From an uncultured Verrucomicrobiae bacterium (GTDB lineage: Bacteria > Verrucomicrobiota > Verrucomicrobiia > Chthoniobacterales > JAFAMB01): a DNA stretch of 64,000 bases. Both the position numbers and the translations under genes were made by a program. The number at the start of each line of letters is the position of its first letter. Within the stretch, counting starts at the first letter, position 1. The notes under the pieces were generated by a model. The model worked only from the letters and a program-made list of their open reading frames with translations, did not search any database and was not told where the DNA came from. The stretch spans positions 198,286-262,285 of the forward strand of contig CAVXLD010000001.1 of the NCBI GenBank assembly GCA_963762565.1, written 5' to 3'. Positions 14,382-63,413 of the stretch are shown here, piece after piece.

Positions 14382-14420
14382 CTTTGGCGTTTGGCGTGTC
14401 GGCGGACGGGACCGCAATTT

Positions 14421-14701
14421 GGTGGGGCGAGGCTCCCGAACGGAAGATGTACTTTCACAGCGCCCCTCGCTGAACCTCATGAGTTGTCGGCAACACCGAT
14501 GGACCGCCGAGCCGTCGGTCTGCAGCGTTTCAATACCCCGTTAGAATGAAGAACGTGCGTAGCAGATGCTTCAGATGCGCTGATTAGTTGTACGCGCTGG
14601 GACGCGGCTCGGCACGCCAATCGGCGAAACCTCGCGCGCAGTTTCGCAAAATCGAGCCTCTTTGTCGGAGATTTTAGGTCACTCGGGAGCCTCGCCCCAC
14701 C
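14421..14701. repeat. Family A element, copy A1 (281 nt)
   Basis: TIRs ggtggggcgaggctcccgaa (14421-14440) / tcgggagcctcgccccacc (14683-14701). Internal gccgagccg (14506-14514) / cggctcggc (14605-14613). GGCGTTT units on the left flank (14384-14405). Confidence 0.9.
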
Positions 14702-19722: not shown

Positions 19723-19947
19723 ATGGTGATTGGTGATTGGTGGGGCGAGGCTCCCGAAAGGCCTTTTAGTCTTATCAAGCGGGTCAGTTCTCACCCGGAG
19801 ATTATGTCCGCTACGCCGATAAACCCGCCGAGCCGTTGGTCCACGCGAACCATGGCTCGGCAGCGTTTCGGCATAGGTCGTATCGTGGTGAGGATCTTCC
19901 CCCTGCCTTGCGATCGTCATCAGGCCTTTCCGGAGCCTCGCCCTACC
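19718..19947. repeat. Family A element, copy A3 with GTGATTG array on the left
   Basis: The array gtgtgaatggtgattggtgattgg contains the mglA stop. TIRs 19739-19758 / 19928-19947. Minimal central hairpin gccgagccgttggt-ccacgcga-accatggctcggc. Confidence 0.9.
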
Positions 19948-24939: not shown

Positions 24940-25800
24940 AGTAAGTACGTCGTTCTTCTGCTCCTGACCGCATTGTTTTGGTCGTTGGGAGGAGTCCTCA
25001 TCAAGTCCATCGATTGGAATCCTGTCGCCATTGCGGGTTCGCGAAGCTTGATCGCCGTCTTCCTAATCGCCATCCTGCGACCGTCCGCCGTCCGTAAATT
25101 TTCCTGGACCGCATTCTTCGGCGGAATCGCCTACATGGTGACAGTTGTGTTGTTCGTGATTGCAACCAAGCTGACAACCGCTGCCAATGCCATTTTTCTC
25201 CAGTACACGGCTCCGATTTATATCGCTCTGATAAGCCCATGGCTTTTGAAGGAACGTGTTCGTCGACTGGACTGGATTCTGATCGGTCTTGCTTTCGGCG
25301 GAATTGCTCTCTTTTTCTGCGACCGGCTCTCCTTTGCCGGAATTTGGGGAGTAATGGCCGCACTTGTCAGCGGCTTCTCCTACGCGTGGCTTACGATGCT
25401 GTTGCGTCGCCAAAAATCGGCATCCCCCGAAGCCACGGTGTTCATAGGCAACTTGATGACTGTGTTAGTGGCGGCTCCGGCGATGTGGCCGCCGGTGAAC
25501 CTGGGCCATAATTGGCCTTGGCTGCTTGCCTTGGGCGTCCTCCAGCTCACGATTCCCTATTTGCTTTATACACAGGCTATCCGGCATGTGCGTGCGCTGG
25601 ATGCATCTATAATCAGCATGATCGAGCCGATCCTTAATCCGATCTGGGTCATGTTTGCCGTGGGCGAACATCCCGCCAGATGGGCAATCGTCGGAGGATG
25701 CATGGTCCTGGGAACCTCTTTGCTACGGAGTATCTTCGCCTCGCGCGAGCCCGAATCCGAATTCGCCTTAGGCTCATCCGGAATGACAAATGACAGATGA
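24919..25800 (+). CDS. DMT (EamA) family transporter
   Basis: About 10 TM helices in two EamA-like halves. The start is uncertain because the first codons lie in the GGCGTTY-type array. The stop and last ~13 codons lie in element F1. Confidence 0.75.
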   Translation: MNAERQTSKYVVLLLLTALFWSLGGVLIKSIDWNPVAIAGSRSLIAVFLIAILRPSAVRKFSWTAFFGGIAYMVTVVLFVIATKLTTAANAIFLQYTAPIYIALISPWLLKERVRRLDWILIGLAFGGIALFFCDRLSFAGIWGVMAALVSGFSYAWLTMLLRRQKSASPEATVFIGNLMTVLVAAPAMWPPVNLGHNWPWLLALGVLQLTIPYLLYTQAIRHVRALDASIISMIEPILNPIWVMFAVGEHPARWAIVGGCMVLGTSLLRSIFASREPESEFALGSSGMTNDR

Positions 25801-25902
25801 AAAATGACAGATTGGGAAATCCTTCGGTCACACGCGTTCTATTTCGGACATTTGTCATCTGTCATTTGTCATTTGTCATTCGAAACGAGCCTCAGGCGAG
25901 TT
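25760..25902. repeat. Family F element, copy F1 (143 nt)
   Basis: aattcgccttaggctcatccggaATGACAAATGACAGATGAAAAATGACAG, core attgggaaatccttcggtcacacgcgttctatttcggac, then the inverted TGTCATY array and cgaaacgagcctcaggcgagtt. Confidence 0.9.
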
Positions 25903-26329
25903 TCGCCGTGTACGTATTCGCAGTGCCAGACAGACACACGACTCCATCCTGATTGCGCACAGTGGTGGCAAGCGTGCAGATCGGTTTGTCGTCACGAACA
26001 GTTGTGACTTCAACCCTGCCGGTAATCACATCTCCGACGTAGACTGCTTTAACAAACTTCCATTCTACCCCGAGAAACACCGTGCCGGGGCCAGGGAGAT
26101 CTTCGGCCACGATCGCGTTCAAAATTCCGGAAGTGATGCCTCCCTGAACGATCAATCCGCCAAACACTGATCTCCCAGCAACTTCGCGGTCATAATGTAA
26201 CGGATTCCGGTCGCCGGTGATCTCTGTAAATAGCGCGATGTCGCGCTCGCTGACTGTTCGGGATCGCTCTGCCGAATCGCCAACTCTCGGTTTCCCACGA
26301 ATTGTTCCCGCCCAACCGTCACTCTTCAT
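25892..26329 (-). CDS. MaoC-family (R)-specific enoyl-CoA hydratase/dehydratase
   Basis: 145 aa hot-dog fold. ITGDRNPLHYD motif. Confidence 0.85.
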   Translation of the reverse strand: MKSDGWAGTIRGKPRVGDSAERSRTVSERDIALFTEITGDRNPLHYDREVAGRSVFGGLIVQGGITSGILNAIVAEDLPGPGTVFLGVEWKFVKAVYVGDVITGRVEVTTVRDDKPICTLATTVRNQDGVVCLSGTANTYTAKLA

Positions 26330-26343
26330 GATGTGACCTCCGG

Positions 26344-26486
26344 ACTCGCCTTAGGCTCGTCCGCAATGACAAATGACAAATAACAGATGACAGATTGGGA
26401 ATTCCTTCGGTCACACGCATTTCTATTTCGGAGATTTGTCATTTGTAATTTGTCATCTGCCATTCCGAACGAGCCTCAGGCGAGTT
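26344..26486. repeat. Family F element, copy F2 (143 nt)
   Basis: Same layout as F1. Core attgggaattccttcggtcacacgcatttctatttcggag. The right end ccgaacgagcctcaggcgagtt supplies the stop of the ABC ATPase gene. Confidence 0.9.
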
Positions 26487-27231
26487 CGGCTTCTGTGAGC
26501 GCTGCTAACACCCGTTCCTTCCAAGCCGTGAAGGCATGATCCTGTCGAGAACGAGGCCGAGGAAGATCGATCCGAAATTGGCGATGAATTTGTCCGGGGC
26601 GTCCCTTGATCACAACGATGCTGTCGGATAATGCGACCGCTTCTTCAATATCGTGCGTCACGAAAAACATGGTCAACGAATGCCTCGCAAAAAGCTCCAT
26701 CAAATGGTCTTGCAGCCGGCTTCGGGTGAGAGCATCGAGGGCGCTAAACGGCTCGTCCAGCAATAGAAGAGATGGTTTTCGCACTAAGGCTCTGGCTATC
26801 GCCACCCTTTGAGCCATCCCTCCCGACAATTGGCGCGGGTAATAATGGGAGAAGGATTCTAAACCAACTTGCTCCAGAATTTCCTTCGCCAACGCTCCGA
26901 TCCGGCTATGCCCGGCCGGGCCGAACCCGAATTCCACATTTTGGCGAACGGTCAGCCACGGCATGAGTCGGGGCTCTTGAAACACGACGCCTAGGTTGGG
27001 GCGTTCGGCATTTGGCGTTTGGCGTTCGGCGTTCGGCGCACGATCGCTATCCCAGCGGATTTCTCCGGAGGTCGGGCGCTCAAGTCCAGCTAGAATCCGC
27101 AACAGCGTGCTTTTGCCCGAGCCGGTCGTACCCACCATCACCGTGACTTGTTGCGGCTCGATCGAAAGCTCAAGATTAGCAATCACCAAAGCGTCACCGT
27201 AAGCCTTCGTTATCTGATCGATTCTTACCAT
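26476..27231 (-). CDS. ABC transporter ATP-binding protein, NitT/TauT (SsuB/TauB-like) family
   Basis: Walker A GTTGSGKST, signature LSGGMAQR, Walker B LLLLDEP. The true start is probably MVRIDQI at 27231, since the track start at 27330 reads through element F3. It contains an in-frame heptamer-array insertion. Confidence 0.9.
   Translation of the reverse strand: MVRIDQITKAYGDALVIANLELSIEPQQVTVMVGTTGSGKSTLLRILAGLERPTSGEIRWDSDRAPNAERQTPNAERPNLGVVFQEPRLMPWLTVRQNVEFGFGPAGHSRIGALAKEILEQVGLESFSHYYPRQLSGGMAQRVAIARALVRKPSLLLLDEPFSALDALTRSRLQDHLMELFARHSLTMFFVTHDIEEAVALSDSIVVIKGRPGQIHRQFRIDLPRPRSRQDHAFTAWKERVLAALTEAELA
26994..27042. repeat. GGCGTTY heptamer array inside the ABC ATPase coding sequence
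   Basis: ggttggggcgttcggcatttggcgtttggcgttcggcgttcggcgcacg. Translated on the minus strand it gives APNAERQTPNAERPN, between the Walker A region and the VVFQEPRLMPW Q-loop. Confidence 0.85.
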
Positions 27232-27243
27232 TGAACTCGCTGA

Positions 27244-27377
27244 GGCTCCTTCAAGATGACAATGACAGATGACAGATGACAAATGTCCGAAATAGACCGC
27301 GCGTGACCGAAGGATCTCCCAATCTGTCATCTGTCATTTGTCATTCCGAACGAGCCTCAGGCGAGTTCGGCTGATAG
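27244..27377. repeat. Family F element, copy F3 (core inverted relative to F1/F2)
   Basis: aactcgctgaggctccttcaagATGACAATGACAGATGACAGATGACAA, core atgtccgaaatagaccgcgcgtgaccgaaggatctcccaatc, then TGTCATCTGTCATTTGTCATtccgaacgagcctcaggcgagtt. Confidence 0.9.
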
Positions 27378-28216
27378 GCGTCCTGCCAGTGCAACGCACG
27401 CTCGGAAACCCAGGCCAAGCATCCGTCAGTCGATTTTCCGCACAGAGCGAATAACAAGATGCTGGTGATCAAAGTGGCGGGACGACCGGTGGTTTGTCCA
27501 TCGATCAGCAGAAACCCGAGACCATGGGTTGCTCCCATGAATTCTGCTGCGACTACAAACATCCAAGCCAGACCTAAACTCTGTCGAAGCCCTACGAAAA
27601 TGGCCGGTAAACTTGCGGGGAGAAATATTCTTCGAGCCAAGCTCCACCCCTTGAAGCCGTTCACCAACGCAACCTCAACCAGTTTCCGGTCAACGCTACG
27701 GATGCTGCTCACGAGCGCCAGGTAGAGCGGAAAGAACGCCCCCAGCGCAATCAAGAGGATCTTCGAGGTCTCAAAAATTCCGAACCACAGAATGAAAAGA
27801 GGGACCCAAGCATACGAAGGTACGCTTCGAATCGCGTGAATGGTCGGGTTGAGTAATCGATACGCGGTTGAGCTAATGCCCGTAACGGTTCCGAGCACTA
27901 TCGCAACTGCGCTGCCTAGACCGAAGCCGCTGAAGACTCGGACAAAAGTGGCCCAGAGATGGACCCAGATCTGCCCGCTCCAAAGCAAACGATTGATTTC
28001 AGCCAGGATCTCGGTTGGCGAAGAAGTAATTGTCCGGTCTAACCATCCAAGGCGAGACGCCATTTCCCAGGCGGTTAGTGCGATTGCCGGAACCACAAAA
28101 CCAAGCAAACTCCATCGCCGGCGCCATTTGACAGGAGTCCGGACTCTATCTCTCGCAGTCTTAGATTCCAAGACATCGACTGGCTCAGCGGCAGGGAGCA
28201 GCGTAGAAGTCGCCAT
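27341..28216 (-). CDS. ABC transporter permease, NitT/TauT (SsuC/TauC-like) family
   Basis: BPD-transporter-type membrane protein. Start preferred at MATSTLL (28216), because the track start at 28255 lies inside element D1. The last ~12 codons are read from element F3. Confidence 0.85.
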   Translation of the reverse strand: MATSTLLPAAEPVDVLESKTARDRVRTPVKWRRRWSLLGFVVPAIALTAWEMASRLGWLDRTITSSPTEILAEINRLLWSGQIWVHLWATFVRVFSGFGLGSAVAIVLGTVTGISSTAYRLLNPTIHAIRSVPSYAWVPLFILWFGIFETSKILLIALGAFFPLYLALVSSIRSVDRKLVEVALVNGFKGWSLARRIFLPASLPAIFVGLRQSLGLAWMFVVAAEFMGATHGLGFLLIDGQTTGRPATLITSILLFALCGKSTDGCLAWVSERALHWQDAYQPNSPEARSE

Positions 28217-28230
28217 TTCTTGGTCCCCTC

Positions 28231-28524
28231 TTGTGTCCTGTCCCATAAGTAACATGGCTTTCGCCGTCGGCCAGTTGGCTGTTTTTCAAGGCGCGAGCGA
28301 AGCGCCCATATCTGGTTCATACGGGTCGAGCGAGCAACGCGGAAAAACAGCCAACTGGCCACGGCCCGGAGGGTTGCGATGAAAATGGGCCGGCGGCTGC
28401 GTTGCTCGTCGGTTACGTATCGATCAAGATATGCGCCCTCTACCGCCAGTCCGGCTCGGACCGCCTTGCCGGCGGCCCATTTTGATCGCAACGAAAGCCA
28501 TGTTACTTATGGGACAGGACACTA
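28231..28524. mobile_element. Family D MITE-like element, copy D1 (294 nt)
   Basis: About 33-nt TIRs: tgtgtcctgtcccataagtaacatggctttcg / cgaaagccatgttacttatgggacaggacacta. It fills the gap between the SBP stop (28522-28524) and the permease start (28216). About 96% identical to D2. Confidence 0.9.
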
Positions 28525-29649
28525 GTTGGCAGTCGCGATCCGATCCGCAAACGAGGGATCGAGCAATTCATTCACGATCCTGTCCACGTCGGTGTTGGGA
28601 TCGATGATTCCGTTCGCTTTCAAGGCGTTGGCGGAATCCAGAATAACCTGGCGCTGAGTCGCTCCGAGCCGCGAATCCTTCAGGTTGGTCCTTTCCCACA
28701 CCTTCTCCGCAACGGCCGGGCTTAATTGAGCCGCTGACTGTAGGATGGTACGCGCTTCGTCCGAATGATCCAGGCACCACAGGCGGGCTTTCTCATAAGT
28801 TCGGAGAACGCGCTCAGTAATATCCGGATGCTCGAAAGCGAAAGCTTCCCGTACGTTCAATACCCCGAAACTGTTCCAATCCGCTCGGCGAAAAAACAGC
28901 TTAAATCCCTTGTCGACCTCTAGCTGTGCCATGTACGGATCCAGCCCGGCCCAAGCATCGACCTGCCCCCGTTCCAACGCGACTTTGCCGTCGGGATGCT
29001 GCAAAGGTACAACCTGGATATCCTTTTCGCTCAACCCAGCGGAGGCGAGTGACCGCAAAAGAAAAATATGAGGATCAGTTCCGCGAGTCACGGCCACGCG
29101 TTTGCCACGCAGATCTTCGATCCGCGTTATTCCGGAGCTTGGGCTTGTTACCAGCGCGGTCCATTCGGGCGCAGAATAAACGTAAATCGCTTTGATTGGG
29201 TTGCCGTTTGCTCGCCCGATAAATGCCGCCGCTCCCGCGGTTGAGCCGAAGTCGACACTTTTGCCCCTTAGATACTCCAGCGCTTTGTTACTACCCAGGC
29301 TCTGCACCCACTCCACCTTGATGCCGCTTGAGCCCAGATCCTCCTCTAGCCATTTCTTGTCCTTGAGCACCAGGCTAATCGGATTGTAGTACGCCCAATC
29401 GACTCGAACGGTGTCGACGCTTCCGGCCTTGGAAAATTCGCCAAACCAGAGCGACCCAAACAAACACATAAGGGACAAAATCGAGCTCAGGCGACCTCGC
29501 CTCGGTGATGGCTTAGTTGTGTCACCGTACGCGCGAGGGGGATTGTACCTCGGGCTGCCATGCCTGGAAGATCGAAGTCGGACGGAAAGAATACTGTGCT
29601 GATAGGGTTTCACCCTCCCCATCTCTAGATGTAATCCGCCCGAACGCAA
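28522..29649 (-). CDS. ABC transporter substrate-binding protein, NMT1/SsuA-like
   Basis: Periplasmic-binding-protein pattern (VRVDWAYYNPISLVLK..., AVTRGTDPHIFLL). The start codon is uncertain, with several in-frame ATGs between 29469 and 29649. Confidence 0.8.
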   Translation of the reverse strand: MRSGGLHLEMGRVKPYQHSILSVRLRSSRHGSPRYNPPRAYGDTTKPSPRRGRLSSILSLMCLFGSLWFGEFSKAGSVDTVRVDWAYYNPISLVLKDKKWLEEDLGSSGIKVEWVQSLGSNKALEYLRGKSVDFGSTAGAAAFIGRANGNPIKAIYVYSAPEWTALVTSPSSGITRIEDLRGKRVAVTRGTDPHIFLLRSLASAGLSEKDIQVVPLQHPDGKVALERGQVDAWAGLDPYMAQLEVDKGFKLFFRRADWNSFGVLNVREAFAFEHPDITERVLRTYEKARLWCLDHSDEARTILQSAAQLSPAVAEKVWERTNLKDSRLGATQRQVILDSANALKANGIIDPNTDVDRIVNELLDPSFADRIATAN

Positions 29650-29688
29650 GCCGTTTCGCGCCTAGCGCAGGCGAGCCGGTCACGACTT

Positions 29689-29892
29689 GGAGGGGAGCCG
29701 CTTTGGAATTTTGCGGATCCGTAAGTTGGCAGCAAGCGGCTCCCGGGAACGGTCCAGGGCTGGGCAGCTCTGTGACGGCTTCAAATCGATGCTTGCAACC
29801 GGGTTCTTCCGCCGTGCCTCACATTGGGTAATTCCCGGGAGCCGCTTGCTACCAACCTACAGATCTGCCACGCTACAAAGCGGCTCCCCTCC
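29689..29892. repeat. Family B element, copy B2 (204 nt, double nested inverted repeats)
   Basis: Outer ggaggggagccgctttg (29689-29705) / caaagcggctcccctcc (29876-29892). Inner ttggcagcaagcggctcccgggaa (29726-29749) / ttcccgggagccgcttgctaccaa (29832-29855). Confidence 0.9.
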
Positions 29893-30018
29893 AGTCCTTG
29901 GGCGTGCGACGCCACCGGGCTGATTGCGATGACGAGAACGAAGATGATCGCGCCACAGTGATCACTCACTCCTTGCAAGCCCAGCAGCTCCAGGCCACGG
30001 TTTGGCAGACCTAAAGTT

Positions 30019-31053: not shown

Positions 31054-31345
31054 TTAGTGATTAGTGATTGGCGATGGCGCTGGTCGGGCGAGGCTCCCGA
31101 AAGAACTAAAGTCTCTAACGAAGATCCAGACGTTTCGGCCTGAAAGAGTTTGTTAGGCCGATCGGTGTGCCGAGCCGTGGTTCCGCGCGTAACCCGGCTC
31201 GGCGCGTTGCTAGAAGTAGCATGCCTTCTTAATTCGGAATGCGAAGGGAGATGGAAAATCACAGAGTCTTTCGGGAGCCTCGCCCTACCAACGGCGTCTC
31301 ATCCACCATCACCTCTCACCAATCACCAATCACTTCTCACCTTCT
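31051..31345. repeat. Family A element, copy A5 with inverted TGATTAG-type arrays
   Basis: The array starts on the aldo/keto reductase TGA stop. TIRs 31082-31101 / 31270-31289. Central hairpin gccgagccgtggtt-ccgcgcgt-aacccggctcggc. Right array atcaccaatcaccaatcact (to ~31345). Confidence 0.9.
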
Positions 31346-33564: not shown

Positions 33565-33858
33565 TAGTGTGCTGTCCCATAAATAACATGGCTTTCGCCG
33601 TCGGTCAGTTGGCTGTTTTTCAAGGCGCGAGCGAAGCGCCCATATCTGGTTCATACGGGTCGAGCGAGCAACGCGGAAAAACAGCCAACTGGCCTCGGCC
33701 CGGAGGGTTGCGATGAAAATGGGCCGGCGGCTGCGTTGCTCGTCGGTTACGTATCGATCTAGATATGCGCCCCTTACCGCCAGTCCGGCTCGGACCGCCT
33801 TACCGGCGGCCCATTTTGATCACAACGAAAGCCATGTTATTTATGGGACAGCACACTA
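33565..33858. mobile_element. Family D MITE-like element, copy D2 (294 nt)
   Basis: TIRs tagtgtgctgtcccataaataacatggctttcg / cgaaagccatgttatttatgggacagcacacta. About a dozen substitutions versus D1 and no indels. Confidence 0.9.
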
Positions 33859-33865
33859 GGAGCGC

Positions 33866-38767: not shown

Positions 38768-38817
38768 CCATGGAAGACATCCCCCAACCTGCCTTTGGCC
38801 GACGCAATTCGGACCCG

Positions 38818-39022
38818 GAGGGGAGCCGCTTTATCGTTAGGCAGCTCTGTAATTCGGCAGCAAGCGGCTCCCGAGAACGGCCCCGGATGATGCAGGTCTA
38901 TTGGGCAGCCATATCGACCAGCTTGGAACAGAGCCGCTGGGCAAATATTTACGCTGGGTTATTCCCGGGAGCCGCCTGCTGCCAACTGATAGGACTGCCA
39001 CACTACAAAGCGGCTCCCCTCC
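38818..39022. repeat. Family B element, copy B3 (205 nt)
   Basis: Outer repeats 38818-38834 / 39006-39022. Inner repeats 38853-38877 / 38962-38985. The right flank ctgggcatgcgacgcc resembles the B2 flank. Confidence 0.9.
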
Positions 39023-39068
39023 AGGCGCTGGGCATGCGACGCCGTGTTCTTAGAAGCACGAAGCGCAC

Positions 39069-39966: not shown

Positions 39967-40944
39967 TTGCTCAAAGATCCTATGCCGCCCAACCAAACGT
40001 TGATAGCGGAAGCTCCGGCGAAAAAAACGCCTGTCCCGAAAAGCTCTTTGCCTTCCGGGCTGCGCGCCGCCTATCGCAGCGGTATTCTGACGACGCTGCT
40101 TTTGTTTTTGCCTCCGGCGCTCGTGCTCTTCAGCATGTTCGTTATCCTGCCGGTCGGCGAAGCCAGCTATTTCAGCTTTTTTAACTGGAACGGGTACGGC
40201 CATCCCAATAAGTGGATCGATTTCGTAAATTATTTTCGCGTCCTGCGCGACCCGGTTTTTCTGCAGTCACTGGGAAATAATGGTCTGGTCATCCTAGTCT
40301 CAGCTTTTATTCAGGTGCCGCTGGCGCTCTGGGTAGCCCTTCTGATCTCCGATCGAAGCCGGTCCAGCATCGTGTTTCGGGCGATCTTTTTCGTTCCTTA
40401 CATACTGGCTGACGTCGTGGCCGGTCTGATTTGGCGTTATCTCTACGACGGTGATTATGGAATTGTCGGCACGATCTTTCGTTGGTTTGGGCGTGATGCC
40501 CCCGATGTCCTGGCAGAGACCGGGTGGGCGACAGCGGCGCTATTATTAGTCGTGGTCTGGAAATATTTCGGATTTCACATGGCGCTGTTCATTGCTGGAC
40601 GCCAAAACGTCCCCAACGACGTACTCGAGTCGGCGCGAATCGACGGCGCCAGCCGTTGGAACATTACCCGTTTCATAGTTCTTCCGCTGATGCGGCCAGT
40701 CATTGTTCTTTCTCTGTTTTTTAGCTTGCTCGGGTCTCTACAACTCTTTGACCTCATTATCGCGCTGACTGGTGGAGGTCCGCTCAATTCAACCCACTCG
40801 GCGGTCTCTTACCTCTACACGTTTGGAATCAGGCGGATGCAAGTCGGTTTTGGCAGTGCGGTCGGAGTTATCCTTTTTATTATCTGCGTTCTGGTCATGA
40901 TTTTCTATAAGCGCATCTTTATGCGGGAGTCTGCCTCCAAATGA
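39967..40944 (+). CDS. Carbohydrate ABC transporter permease
   Basis: 6-TM MalF-type permease with the EAA-like loop ESARIDGASRWNITRFIVLP. Start uncertain (39967 or 39982). Confidence 0.85.
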   Translation: MLKDPMPPNQTLIAEAPAKKTPVPKSSLPSGLRAAYRSGILTTLLLFLPPALVLFSMFVILPVGEASYFSFFNWNGYGHPNKWIDFVNYFRVLRDPVFLQSLGNNGLVILVSAFIQVPLALWVALLISDRSRSSIVFRAIFFVPYILADVVAGLIWRYLYDGDYGIVGTIFRWFGRDAPDVLAETGWATAALLLVVVWKYFGFHMALFIAGRQNVPNDVLESARIDGASRWNITRFIVLPLMRPVIVLSLFFSLLGSLQLFDLIIALTGGGPLNSTHSAVSYLYTFGIRRMQVGFGSAVGVILFIICVLVMIFYKRIFMRESASK

Positions 40945-41762
40945 AATCCCTCTTCAGTTACTATCGATGGTTGGTCTTGCTTCTGGTAGCGAGTTTTTGC
41001 CTGGTTCCATTGTGGGCAACCGTCGTGGGTGGGTTTAAGTCGACGGGTGACCTCCGTACGAATGCTCTCGGCTTGCCCCGGCAGTGGCTGGTAGACAATT
41101 ATATTTCCATCGTCTCGACTCCGCGGTTTTGGCAGATGCTTTGGAATTCGGCTGTGATCGCCTTTTTCACGGTCGTACTAACATTGATAGTCAGTTCACT
41201 AGCTGCATATACTCTAGCTCATTTGCGCTTCGCTGGGCGCAAATGGATCGCCAACTACCTGACCCTGGGACTGACTTTCCCGTTCGCCACTGCAGTCTTG
41301 CCAGTATTTATTCGGGTTCGCGATCTCGGCCTGCTCGACACCTACTGGGGCGTCATCCTCCCCCAAGTCGCCTTTAACTTAAGCTTTAGCATCGTGTTGC
41401 TGCGCGGTTTCTTCTCAGAGTTACCAAAGGAATTGTTTGAAGCTGCGATCATGGATGGTTGCAGTTATCCACGAATCTTTTTGCGCATTACCCTGCCGCT
41501 CTCTCGCCCGATCCTGGCCACTGTCGGCGTTCTGGCTCTGGTCGGAAGCTGGAACAACTTCCTTTTGCCATTGGTTACCATCAATGACGACTCCGTTTAT
41601 CCATGGCCTTTAGGAATCATGCAGTTTCAAGGTCAATACAGCACCGACTGGGGGAAGGTGCTGGCTTTCGTAACCCTCACCATGCTTCCCGCTATCACGC
41701 TGTATCTGATGGCCCAGAAACAGGTCATTGCCGGCCTTACTTCGGGAGCCGTTAAGGGTTAG
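40941..41762 (+). CDS. Carbohydrate ABC transporter permease
   Basis: MalG-type permease with the loop EAAIMDGCSYPRIFLRITLPLSRP. ATGA overlap with the upstream permease. Confidence 0.85.
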   Translation: MKSLFSYYRWLVLLLVASFCLVPLWATVVGGFKSTGDLRTNALGLPRQWLVDNYISIVSTPRFWQMLWNSAVIAFFTVVLTLIVSSLAAYTLAHLRFAGRKWIANYLTLGLTFPFATAVLPVFIRVRDLGLLDTYWGVILPQVAFNLSFSIVLLRGFFSELPKELFEAAIMDGCSYPRIFLRITLPLSRPILATVGVLALVGSWNNFLLPLVTINDDSVYPWPLGIMQFQGQYSTDWGKVLAFVTLTMLPAITLYLMAQKQVIAGLTSGAVKG

Positions 41763-41897
41763 CGTTTGGCGTTTGGCGTTCGGCGTTGGCAGTTGGTAGC
41801 GCTCGAGCTCAGTAAGCGGTTTTCTTCTACATAGCGCTCATTATTTTGGGACGACCACGGCCGCCTTTCACCTTTCACTTCTCACTGATCACTAACC
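41763..41897. repeat. Hybrid array element G2 (GGCGTTY array left, CCTTTCA/CTNATCA array right)
   Basis: cgtttggcgtttggcgttcggcgttggc starts 1 nt after the permease stop. Right side cctttcacctttcacttctcactgatcactaacc. The two arrays are not complementary. Confidence 0.7.
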
Positions 41898-42296
41898 TTG
41901 AGCATTGGACACAAACCATTCACACTCCTACCCATGGCCGAGCTCACAACCTATCTCTTCCCTGCTGTCCAAGGATTGTTTTGCCTGATCGTAGCCGTGG
42001 TATGGCTGATCGGGTTTATTCGTCAGCGAAACATCGGTTTTTTGCTATTGACCCTGGCGACGCTTGCCGAAGGTGTAACCAGTCCAATCCGGCAGGTGCT
42101 AATCAATTACGTGATCTTTCATGAGTCTCATCTCTCCGCTGCAGAACGGTCGACCGCCCTTGCAACGATTTCCTACACGATTCTTGGTTTTTACATCGTG
42201 TTTTGGCTGGTTACCGCCCTCGGCGCGACGTTGGTGGTGTTCCATCGATCAAAACATCAGATAGCTCCCGGACCAATTCCTCCCGTGTCTGGTTAG
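41898..42296 (+). CDS. Hypothetical membrane protein
   Basis: 132 aa with about four hydrophobic helices. TTG start, so the start is uncertain. Confidence 0.4.
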   Translation: MSIGHKPFTLLPMAELTTYLFPAVQGLFCLIVAVVWLIGFIRQRNIGFLLLTLATLAEGVTSPIRQVLINYVIFHESHLSAAERSTALATISYTILGFYIVFWLVTALGATLVVFHRSKHQIAPGPIPPVSG

Positions 42297-42317
42297 ATCG
42301 ATCGCACATAAATAGCG

Positions 42318-42349
42318 TTGGCGGTTTCGCACCGCTGCGAAACCGCCAA
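42318..42349. terminator. Hairpin between convergent genes (candidate bidirectional terminator)
   Basis: ttggcggtttcgca-ccgc-tgcgaaaccgccaa is a 14-bp perfect stem. It lies between the 41898-42296 (+) stop and the 42391-42897 (-) stop. The flanking U-tract is weak. Confidence 0.5.
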
Positions 42350-42390
42350 GTCGGCTACTCCTGAAAAACTGGAGTCAGGTTAAAGGGTTC

Positions 42391-42897
42391 TTATTTGCGC
42401 TCAACCTTGACCTTGCGGCCGGTTTGATGGTCGAGATAGATCTCCTTGTTTCCCTTTTTCTCGATCAGTTCATACCGGCTTGGGGCCTGTTGAACTTCCT
42501 GCGTGGTAACCACCGCATCGTCGCCAGTTGATTCTACCACCGTGCCTGGCCGCTCAGTGACCACCGTGTTAGGCCGCTCGGTGGTGGTTGTCGTGGTAGT
42601 CTCCCGCACGCCGCCCGCTGGGGCTTGCAGAATGGAGCCAGTCGGTGACACGTAAATCACTTGCTGACCCGAGTCACCCATGTACGTCACGGCATACTCT
42701 CCTCCGGTGTCCTGGACCACGCGTACTACTTTCGTCGGAGACGCAATTCTTGTTTCTCTAATCACCGACGATTGGACAACTTGGGGCAGGGTTGTGAATT
42801 GAAGCACCTCGTCAGCTTTCGCGATCCCAACGAGTGATACACCTACTCCGGCAACGGCGATAAGACGTGTTACGTTTGTCATTAATTGATCTTTCAT
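42391..42897 (-). CDS. Secreted protein, PepSY-like, paralogue of 43023-43940
   Basis: Signal peptide. QFTTLPQVVQSSVIRE...VVRVVQDTGGEYAVTYMGDSGQQVIYVSPTGSI aligns with the neighbouring gene. The C-terminal YELIEKKGNKEIYLDHQTGRKV motif is shared. Confidence 0.5.
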   Translation of the reverse strand: MKDQLMTNVTRLIAVAGVGVSLVGIAKADEVLQFTTLPQVVQSSVIRETRIASPTKVVRVVQDTGGEYAVTYMGDSGQQVIYVSPTGSILQAPAGGVRETTTTTTTERPNTVVTERPGTVVESTGDDAVVTTQEVQQAPSRYELIEKKGNKEIYLDHQTGRKVKVERK

Positions 42898-42910
42898 TTT
42901 TGCAGTTGGC

Positions 42911-42938
42911 GTCTCGCGCCAATCTGGTGACGCGAGAC
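42911..42938 (-). terminator. Short GC hairpin between the two tandem paralogues
   Basis: gtctcgcg-ccaatctggtga-cgcgagac is an 8-bp stem, downstream of the 43023-43940 stop. Confidence 0.3.
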
Positions 42939-43022
42939 TAGCCTTTACTCTTTCTATTTCGCAGACGGGACAGTTCTTGGATCTATCTCCAGGCCATCAC
43001 TGCTGCTGGTTTTTAGATTCGA

Positions 43023-43940
43023 CTAAGAACCCGGCGAGGGTTTCGCTTTGCTCTTGGATTTGTCCTGAGACTGGGATTTCTCCTGAGACTGTTGTTGTTC
43101 GCCAGGAGTCCGGCTTGTTTGATGCTGCTCCTTGTCGCCCTGGTTCTCCTTCATGTTGCGCTGATCCGCATTCTTTTCATCGGTCCGCGGATTTCCTGAG
43201 GTGTCACGAGTTTTCTGCTCTTGACCATTGCCAACGCGCTCTTGGTTCCCTTGATCCTTTTGTTCTCCCCGACTCACATTATGCTGAGTCTTCTGCTCCT
43301 CCCTCATATTCTTGTTGGCTTCCTTGGCATTGCCTTCGTCGGTTTTTTCGCGCATAGCGCCCGACTGCTGATCTTTGTCTTCAGTACGAACGCTACCCTT
43401 GTTCTCTTGGTCCGTTCGGACATTGGTTTTATCCGTCTCGTTCGTTCGGATATTCGTTTTGTTTTCTTCCGTAGTCCGACCGCCGCCCCGCGAAACTTCA
43501 CTAGCGCCACCTTTGACGATCACTCTCTTGTTGGTCTGATGATCGATATAGATCGCGTCTGGTCCCTGGTCTTGCACGAACTCGTAACGTTCACCCCCGC
43601 TCCGGATCTCATCCATTGTGATCGTCACTTCCGACGATCCCTGTCCGCCTTGTTCGATCACCGTGCTCGGCCGCTCGACGATGGTTCCATCCGCGTTGAC
43701 GTAGACGATCTGGTCTCCGCTATCCGTCAAAACCGTGATTTCGTAGATATTGTCCGGCTCTTCCACAACGCGGACAACCTTCTCCGGGCTTACGATATTG
43801 TAATGATGAAAAACAGTTGTCCGAACTACCTGTGGCAAGGTGGTGAATTGGATCTCTTTTTTAACCTCTTTTGCTTCCGTGGCCGCACACAGACAGAGAC
43901 CGAGTGCACAGGCCGCGATAATATACTTTGTTCTATTCAT
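43023..43940 (-). CDS. Secreted protein, PepSY-like N-terminal half plus ~150-aa charged disordered tail
   Basis: Signal peptide ACALGLCLCAATEA. QFTTLPQVVRTTVFHHYN...EITVLTDSGDQIVYVNADGTIV. The tail is rich in K/E/Q/N/R/T with short repeats (TNIRTNETDKTNVRTDQENKGSVRTEDKD). Confidence 0.5.
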   Translation of the reverse strand: MNRTKYIIAACALGLCLCAATEAKEVKKEIQFTTLPQVVRTTVFHHYNIVSPEKVVRVVEEPDNIYEITVLTDSGDQIVYVNADGTIVERPSTVIEQGGQGSSEVTITMDEIRSGGERYEFVQDQGPDAIYIDHQTNKRVIVKGGASEVSRGGGRTTEENKTNIRTNETDKTNVRTDQENKGSVRTEDKDQQSGAMREKTDEGNAKEANKNMREEQKTQHNVSRGEQKDQGNQERVGNGQEQKTRDTSGNPRTDEKNADQRNMKENQGDKEQHQTSRTPGEQQQSQEKSQSQDKSKSKAKPSPGS

Positions 43941-44211
43941 TGGCTTTCTCTTTGATTTACTTCTCTCCCGCCGTACCGGACTCCGAGCCGGGACAGTGAC
44001 TCCCCTGTAGTAGGTATCGCGGTCCCGTCGCCGGGCGGATCTGTAAGATTGCTTTTACGAGAAGCGAAAAGATTCGCTGATCGAGGTAGAACGCGATGCG
44101 GATGCTTGTTTACTCGCGTGGCAACGACTAGACCGCCGGGTCAACTCGCTGCAATTTACTGACAAGAGAATTAACTACAGGATGCTTCCCGACTACCTCG
44201 AGAATCAATGC

Positions 44212-46607: not shown

Positions 46608-46648
46608 GTAAGAGCGGAACGTAACACAGCATTACAAATAACCAAGCT

Positions 46649-46894
46649 GGTGGGGCGAGGCTCCGGAATAACCTGAAATGGCAAACGGAGAACTCGATTT
46701 AGTCTAAACCGAGATCGCGCTTCGCCAATGGGCGCGCCGAGCCGATCCCAGCGTGTGGCAGCCGACGATCGGTCAGGGGGGGTGGAACATGCTGGGACCG
46801 GCTCGGCGCGTTTAGCGGCATCGCCCACGATAGATTGGCAAACATTGACGTCCTCCGCTCGAGCAAAGCGGCCGTTCGGGAGCCTCGCCCCACC
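46649..46894. repeat. Family A element, copy A6 (246 nt)
   Basis: TIRs 46649-46668 / 46875-46894. Internal 9-mers 46736-46744 / 46799-46807. Confidence 0.9.
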
Positions 46895-63092: not shown

Positions 63093-63125
63093 TGTAGACA
63101 TGGACCCGGAAGGGGGAGACACCCG

Positions 63126-63335
63126 GAGGGGAGCCGCTTTGTCAGACGCTAGCTGTGTTCGGTCGGCAGCAGGCGGCTCCCGGGAATAGCCCAGCGCGTT
63201 CTATTTATCCAGCGCCTACTTCGTTGAAGCACCGACACGGACAGAGCCTATAGAGCTGGATTACCTGGCAGACGTTACCGGGAGCCGCCTGCAAGCAACC
63301 GATAGACCTGCCAACTTACAAAGCGGCTCCCCTCC
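63126..63335. repeat. Family B element, copy B4 (210 nt)
   Basis: Outer repeats 63126-63142 / 63319-63335. Inner tcggcagcaggcggctcccgggaa (63163-63186) / ttaccgggagccgcctgcaagcaa (63275-63298). Confidence 0.85.
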
Positions 63336-63342
63336 GGCGCCG

Positions 63343-63413
63343 CGTCGCCGATACGCCCATTCGCCCTTTCGCCCGTTCGCCGATACGCCCACACGCCGAC
63401 ACGCCCATACCCC
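63343..63413. repeat. One-sided NTTCGCC-type array upstream of cdsA
   Basis: cgtcgccgatacgcccattcgccctttcgcccgttcgccgatacgcccacacgccgacacgcccatacccc. No mirrored partner on the left of B4. Confidence 0.7.

Follow-up and report, generated by a model that had tools for sequence, protein, structure and literature searches.

A recently active, TA-duplicating MITE family with concertedly evolving ends in soil Verrucomicrobiota

IS630 and ISY100 duplicate TA, IS630 prefers CTAG, and the short terminal inverted repeats (TIRs) of these elements are their sole cis requirement (PMC2170065). The family of elements described here shares the TA duplication and the CTAG preference of IS630; IS630 and ISY100, however, encode a transposase and move by a mechanism that needs no end-to-end pairing, and the end of ISY100 (TAGTAGTTTCAAATAAAG...) has no convincing similarity to the TIR of our element. 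RUP from Streptococcus pneumoniae is similarly non-coding, has TIRs, inserts at TA and is presumed to be moved in trans by an IS630-family transposase (PMC2229807). RUP is, however, a 107-bp simple hairpin with TIRs matching those of a known IS (IS630-Spn1), whereas the present element is 290 nt long, Y-shaped and occurs with at least seven TIR types. Correia/NEMIS and ERIC/YPAL elements duplicate TA and have internal insertion variants. Like the present element, they are MITEs that form stable hairpins, and transcripts of adjacent genes run through them (PMC3733652). They differ in being single hairpins of 100-170 bp and in belonging to Proteobacteria. We are aware of no report of a similar array of TIR types that share a single core. 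In the malE-malF intergenic region of Escherichia coli, a REP, which is a stable palindrome between a binding-protein and a permease gene, protects the upstream mRNA. One of our copies has the equivalent position in an ABC transporter operon, the function being comparable by analogy only, but REPs are 35-40 nt long and unrelated in sequence. REPINs resemble our element in their conserved ends, in a variable spacer paired via compensatory changes and in being hairpin-forming mobile DNA (PMC3116915), but they have a GTAG head, no target duplication, a length of ~60-110 nt and a linked single-copy RAYT gene. The bcr1 element of the Bacillus cereus group is also non-autonomous, with a cruciform-like multi-arm fold, compensatory changes and a strain-polymorphic distribution (PMC3184786); it differs in its size (~155 bp), its 5-bp direct repeats and the phylum of its hosts.

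The window analysed here, a 64,000-nt stretch of DNA from an uncultured Verrucomicrobiae bacterium, contains two copies of the element, D1 and D2 (Table 1), which are the only ones returned by a terminal-motif scan of the window. A repeat search identified a 293-nt direct repeat with 96% identity (28233-28525 and 33567-33859), inside which the pairwise alignment is ungapped. Over the 290-nt element proper, 11 substitutions and no indels separate the copies, in agreement with the original prediction of two copies of the same length differing by about a dozen substitutions. The 294-nt span proposed at that time comprises the 290-nt element together with the dinucleotide on either side of it. Both D1 and D2 have perfect TIRs of 31 bp, GTGT[C/G]CTGTCCCATAA[G/A]TAACATGGCTTTCG, and four of the 11 substitutions make up two mirrored TIR differences, at element positions 5/286 (C:G to G:C) and 17/274 (G:C to A:T), confirming the earlier claim that paired differences preserve complementarity; the same pattern is found family-wide. 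Two or more mirrored complementary pairs arise by chance with a frequency of 0.0013 (200,000 simulations, 11 random substitutions, D1 fold), and five further D1/D2 substitutions lie at paired positions and are uncompensated. The element is small and non-coding, the ORFs that touch it all running past its ends as read-through artefacts. Its proposed identity as a MITE-like mobile element was upheld by the TIRs, the TA target duplication, the many dispersed copies and the empty sites in near-identical strains. An origin of D1 and D2 by segmental duplication was ruled out by their unrelated flanks and by the empty sites.

Table 1 Coordinates of D1, D2, their internal parts and the neighbouring genes in the window.
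Feature	Position	Strand	Remark
D1, MITE proper, 290 nt, GTGTCC...GGACAC	28233-28522		Absent from strains with 98.6-99.8% identical flanks
D1 left terminal inverted repeat, 31 nt	28233-28263		Outer ~12-14 nt family-conserved; inner ~17 nt hypervariable
D1 right terminal inverted repeat	28492-28522		Perfect complement of left TIR
Arm A, internal hairpin, perfect 19-bp stem	28269-28360		Stem 28269-28287 / 28342-28360
Arm B, internal hairpin, 25-bp stem	28373-28492		Stem 28373-28397 / 28468-28492
19-nt small hairpin module, near arm B tip	28442-28460		Present or absent among copies; missing from another strain's orthologous D2 copy
TA target-site copy, binding-protein side of D1	28523-28524		Forms the minus-strand TAG stop together with terminal base 28522 of the element
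Second D1 target dinucleotide, degenerate	28231-28232		TT on plus / AA on minus strand instead of TA
D2, second copy, 290 nt	33567-33856		Flanked by convergent hydrolase and 161-aa genes; empty site in L150
TA target-site duplication left of D2	33565-33566		L150 empty allele
TA target-site duplication right of D2	33857-33858		L150 empty allele
Sulfonate-type ABC substrate-binding protein gene (NMT1/SsuA-like)	28522-29649	-	Stop codon rebuilt by D1 insertion
ABC permease gene (BPD_transp_1)	27341-28216	-	True start ATG 28216-28214; GAGGGG at 28230-25, eight nt upstream
ABC ATPase gene	26476-27330	-	
MaoC dehydratase gene	25892-26329	-	

As a single strand, D1 is predicted to fold into a Y composed of a 31-36-bp outer stem (both TIRs) and two long internal hairpins, arms A and B, with a predicted folding energy of -178/-179 kcal/mol against ~-105 kcal/mol for shuffled sequences (z = -14 for either strand). 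In part, the interiors of arms A and B are inverted copies of one another. Rfam gave no match in the whole window at gathering thresholds and chance-level matches only to the element at E up to 10; a known RNA family as the identity of the element was rejected, no Rfam score having reached the gathering threshold. The orthologous D2 copy of another strain (L149 ~1986-2313, corresponding to 33567-33856 of the window) is without the 19-nt arm-B module, implying that the module was gained or lost in place and not by a separate insertion, with the caveat of sequencing error, as single-base deletions also occur in the L149 assembly.

The D1 site was compared among contigs encoding the identical permease protein, which does not differ between filled and empty strains. 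D1 is present in the window and in L144 (99.8% identical) and absent from L142, L143, L145, L146 and L147 (flanks 98.6-99.8% identical). Read on the minus strand, the empty junction is GACTGCCAAT TAG AGGGGACCAAGAA ATG and the filled one GACTGCCAAC TA[GTGTCC...GGACAC]AA GAGGGGACCAAGAA ATG; the distal target copy is AA, not TA, and in front of the proximal TA the filled allele has C and the empty one T. More distant relatives with the same gene order (87-88% protein identity) also have an empty D1 site, with a 10-11-nt junction. D2 is present in the window, L148 and L149, and absent from L150 (flanks 99.5% and 96.3% identical), where the empty allele is GAGCGCTCC TA GCGTTCTG against GAGCGCTCC TA[...]TA ACGTTCTG in the filled state (on the minus strand, GCTCC TA GCGTT and GCTCC TA[D2]TA ACGTT). 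In these alleles, D2 is bracketed by a cleanly duplicated TA, and the target was CTAG. Contig_18170 of ERZ25039470 is without D1 and with D2, which implies that the two insertions were independent events. The element is mobile and has been recently active in a soil Verrucomicrobiota lineage.

The insertion of D1 hit the TA within the TAG that ends the binding-protein gene; the ribosome-binding site of the permease gene was kept, and it and the permease start follow directly beyond the other end of the element. Because the element begins with a G, the stop codon was rebuilt from the flanking TA (28524-28523) and the terminal base of the element (28522). The original prediction had placed D1 precisely between the binding-protein stop and the permease start in a gap of 305 nt, and this was borne out; the close spacing of the genes without D1 was also foreseen, but the empty-site strains have 13 nt in place of the ~11 nt expected. 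The longer permease reading frame that starts at 28255 (MLLMGQDTRGDQE-MATSTLL; MLLMGQD) had rightly been ascribed to the element terminus, since it is translated TIR sequence. The binding protein has its closest named homologues in Verrucomicrobia and Chthoniobacterales MAGs. A sigma-70-like promoter was not found, and the terminator-like motifs in the element are weak 5-bp ones that compete with the much stronger arm A stem, which makes it likely that D1 is co-transcribed with the binding-protein and permease genes. We propose that D1 would be a co-transcribed passenger, which interrupts the 13-nt coupling between the binding-protein and permease genes and which, by analogy, may act as a REP-type mRNA stabiliser for the upstream gene. 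With 305 nt of very stable structure replacing a 13-nt junction, both an uncoupling of the two genes and a protection of the upstream message are plausible on the same analogy.

Other repeats surround the transporter genes. The ~110-nt permease-ATPase junction is filled by a second, unrelated palindromic repeat (27230-27375; also at 25757-25902 and 26340-26486), which has the ends GAACTCGCCTGAGGCTC and arrays of the heptamer TGTCATC/AATGACA, and contains the TGA stop codon of the permease gene (27341-27343). Large imperfect palindromes with arms of ~62 nt (GGAGGGGAGCCGCTTTG...) are found at 29684-29913, 38812-39043 and 63121-63356, one of them in the divergent intergenic region that immediately precedes the binding-protein gene.

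A genome scan with a 19-base TIR probe gave 15 loci, mostly in soil Verrucomicrobiota MAGs, and a metagenome scan with a 21-base arm-B core probe gave at least 120 loci; in these scans the relatives of D1 and D2 number more than 100 and come mostly from soil Verrucomicrobiota. The 57 full-length copies among the matches listed were assembled in an alignment (A2). The outer stem is represented by at least seven TIR types around one Y-shaped core, and the TIR-probe scan of genomes showed the converse of the core-probe scan, that is, one TIR type with varied interiors. The family terminus is TAGTGYMYYGTCYC; the terminal 12-14 nt fall into two conserved classes, GTGTCCTGTCCC and GTG[TC]A[CT]CGTCTC, while the inner ~17 nt differ at most positions between types, yet the arms match in 55 of the 57 copies among the matches listed. 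The family is mosaic, since the copies combine TIR types, arm-A variants and the 19-nt arm-B module in shuffled fashion, and since the core of D1 resembles type II cores (93%) more than most type I cores (~90%). One copy, L047_1 (L047 676-980), has a type IV TIR on the left and a type II TIR on the right, and is a recombinant of natural origin or else a chimera that metagenome assembly produced over the common core; a few metagenome contigs may be chimeric in this manner.

The genome loci include full-length copies, truncated copies, one-arm forms (L004) and a 78-nt mini-element (L009 6096-6173), in which two type I TIRs surround a 16-nt GC hairpin (TCCGGCAGCTGCCGGA). The same 16-nt hairpin is also inserted at the junctions of larger copies in L003, L008, L012, L015 and L067. 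A solo left TIR at L001 6877-6905 has an internal ATG (..TAACATGGC) that is the apparent start of a CoA-transferase-like ORF (translation read by eye); this element may be truncated and may have donated a start codon. A further short repeat of the window, TGGTGGGGCGAGGCTCCCGAA, occurs at 14 sites (e.g. 14417-14445, 19735-19763, 31078-31106 and 46645-46673), often beside tandem heptamers (GTGATTA, GGCGTTC), and these motifs recur in some related loci. L009 carries these repeat motifs as well, which makes its Actinomycetota label doubtful, and it is probably verrucomicrobial. L010 (Bacillota, 40% GC) was rejected as a member of the family, its 22-nt match being due to chance. Two contigs binned as Acidobacteriota contain copies, one of 144 kb with a copy 96.6% identical to D1 (L013 3226-3517) and one with a copy at L015 60-240; by these bin labels the family may extend outside Verrucomicrobiota. 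A gene neighbouring the L013 copy has its nearest named relatives in Acidobacteriaceae, at ~60% identity, which does not decide the host. We regard the family as a previously undescribed, recently active, TA-duplicating bacterial MITE that is marked by concerted evolution of its ends and by a mosaic, multi-hairpin body.

Of the 57 full-length copies among the matches listed, 46 have TA at the left end and 51 at the right; C precedes the TA in 35 of these 57 copies and G follows it in 44. As read from the flanks, insertion occurs at TA with a preference for CTAG and duplicates TA, which by sequence alone is indistinguishable from the insertion of an element-borne TA beside a TA. A 4-bp (IS5-like CTAG) duplication was rejected, the outer C and G varying independently and the inner G...C always pairing as part of the TIR. 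At 17 of 114 junctions the TAG terminates an open frame of 80 or more codons, against 11 and 4 in two control frames; landing on a TAG stop codon is recurrent in the family and not unique to D1. There are 12 such stop-codon insertions at the right end against 4 at the left, which is a weak trend. By a crude ORF-based classification, the neighbours of the copies are co-directional in 21 cases, convergent in 6 and divergent in 2.

Covariation of the two ends was scored on alignment A2 with the D1 fold as the structure. Over all stems, 95.1% of the cells are standard pairs against 88.2% in the shuffled control, with none of 500 shuffles reaching the observed value, and slid controls give 36-44%. 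In the 30-bp outer stem, 23 of 30 pairs were changed on both sides and 95.5% of the cells are paired (57 copies among the matches listed), against 35-44% in slid controls. RNAalifold independently predicted this outer stem as well as arm B. Sequence varies little in the stems of arms A and B, although the apparent conservation of the core is partly by construction, as the metagenome copies were picked by the core 21-mer. Within TIR types 27 mirrored complementary changes were counted against 88 one-sided ones, and within type I alone there are 15 mirrored cells against ~0.4 expected (a rough estimate from the rate of one-sided deviations). The compensatory nature of the TIR changes, as initially claimed, holds for the pairing kept throughout the family, but many copies have uncompensated TIR changes. 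The view that such substitutions would speak against compensation was too strict, the one-sided changes being the decay expected after insertion. The occurrence of mirrored changes within one type argues against pure sequence recognition by one protein per type, and favours either a requirement for arm-to-arm complementarity or templated copying. We propose that the arms of transposing source copies would be kept complementary at the DNA level, leading to the mirrored TIR differences, that this matching could come about via a fold-back or hairpin-dependent step or via arm-to-arm templated repair, and that after insertion the copies would decay through one-sided mutations. The fact that inserted copies decay by one-sided changes implies that any repair of the arms in place works poorly; most economically, efficient transposition would be confined to source copies with well-matched arms.

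The same covariation could originate by mutation, through template switching in a quasi-palindrome or through recombination between subfamilies that replaces both ends, a proposal which concerns the cause of the covariation only and is compatible with the identity of the element as a MITE. Template switching is a well-established way in which mutation corrects quasi-palindromes, and the shuffling of TIR types, arm-A variants and 19-nt modules, the site that differs between strains by the 19-nt hairpin module, and L047_1 with different TIR types at its two ends are all in line with it. We consider it a rather unlikely cause, given the many one-sided changes left uncorrected in inserted copies and the five uncompensated stem changes between D1 and D2, which indicate that correction in place is not efficient. 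Another possible cause would be a function of the RNA, in which the stem-loops, as part of the operon mRNA, would serve to stabilise the message or to process it, with the compensatory changes as the trace of selection for pairing in the RNA. A classic parallel is the malE-malF REP, and D1, inside an operon, with no promoter-like site and with weak terminator-like motifs, is probably transcribed and has a very stable RNA fold. Moreover, co-transcribed MITEs (ERIC, Correia, bcr1) were reported to affect mRNA fate (PMC3733652; PMC3184786), and bcr1 shows compensatory changes (PMC3184786). On the transcribed strand, however, transition mismatches amount to 25 G.U against 29 A.C in copies with an inferred direction of transcription (59 against 41 overall), and this lack of a wobble bias points to a constraint on DNA rather than RNA; RNA-level selection as the cause of the compensation found no support in the same test. 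An RNA function is made highly improbable also by the occurrence of copies in both orientations in co-directional contexts (12 versus 9) as well as between convergent genes, by the near-identical strains that do without the insertion, and by the outer stem being the most variable part while the inner arms conserve sequence rather than pairing.

With regard to how the element moves, a REPIN-like hairpin could be transferred as single-stranded DNA by a tyrosine HUH transposase of the RAYT/TIRYT type, which would recognise the folded stem together with a short conserved terminal motif, the flanking TA being target plus element end and not a duplication. The layout of conserved ends and a variable inner stem paired by compensatory changes matches reported REPINs (PMC3116915), and TIR-flanked tyrosine transposases with their own repeat families are found among Acidobacteria and members of the PVC group (PMC3733652). 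Pairing as such would seem important here, judged from the excess of mirrored changes within one TIR type, and the filled/empty comparisons give the same picture for a 2-bp duplication and for an element-borne TA. The symmetric context of the TA, with C before and G after at similar frequencies, fits instead the duplication of a palindromic target in double-stranded DNA, which is what IS630 does. The GTAG (or CGTC) head by which REPINs are defined is absent, the ends reading (C)TA followed by GTGYMYYGTCYC, with GTAG only when the flanking base is G (9 of 57 copies); no RAYT-like gene was seen beside any copy in the loci examined, and the element, with its 290 nt and three-way junction, far exceeds the known REPINs in size. 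A REPIN-like element is unlikely for these reasons.

The best explanation overall, which we hold to be fairly probable, is that both D1 and D2 represent a MITE, a DNA transposon that is non-autonomous, with mobilisation of the IS630/Tc1-mariner type, DNA-level matching of the arms and a passenger role in the operon. The TA duplication and the CTAG preference suggest a transposase of this type, and we propose that the element would be moved in trans by a cut-and-paste DDE transposase encoded elsewhere. This assignment is drawn from the target-site signature. The search for an autonomous element or transposase with these ends covered the window, ~750 kb of related loci, a plasmid collection and viral contigs, and gave none; BLAST against the plasmids and the scan of the viral contigs returned no partner. 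Pairing of conserved termini across 139 loci and the window gave only MITE-sized pairs, the ORFs neighbouring solo termini belonged to ordinary genes or truncated elements, and clustering of multi-copy ORFs of at least 180 aa across the loci produced no transposase candidate, the clusters resembling dehydrogenase, ABC ATPase, kinase, channel and efflux families (sequences read by eye). The textbook Tc1/IS630 mechanism requires no pairing of the two ends and, for this reason, leaves the strong arm-to-arm covariation unexplained. A more unusual proposal, which we regard as decidedly unlikely, is a mobile DNA defined by its structure, which combines TA-duplicating insertion with an arm-pairing step (a fold-back or single-strand hairpin intermediate), in which the conserved Y core would be a functional module swapped among at least seven end lineages, and in which the family would have crossed between phyla recently, as read from the 96.6% identical copy on the 144-kb contig binned as Acidobacteriota. 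We know of no description of TA-duplicating insertion combined with an arm-pairing step for IS630-type or HUH-type elements.

Soil Verrucomicrobiota are among the most abundant and least studied soil groups, and the copies described here document a live transposon family in their uncultivated members. The insertion polymorphisms between near-identical strains are possible strain markers and natural experiments on operon expression. The insertion in a stop codon, with the stop restored by the element, illustrates that a parasite targeting TA/CTAG can settle in operons at little cost. Mirrored evolution of the ends around a common core bears on why long inverted repeats of transposons stay matched, a question made testable by the filled and empty alleles together with the wealth of natural end variants. 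Gene annotation is affected through false N-terminal extensions such as MLLMGQD, which the element creates, and, since many copies lie at contig ends, it probably breaks metagenome assemblies. Elsewhere in the window, at 40001-44000, the AT skew is strongly negative (-0.27, -0.28), unlike in the remaining window.
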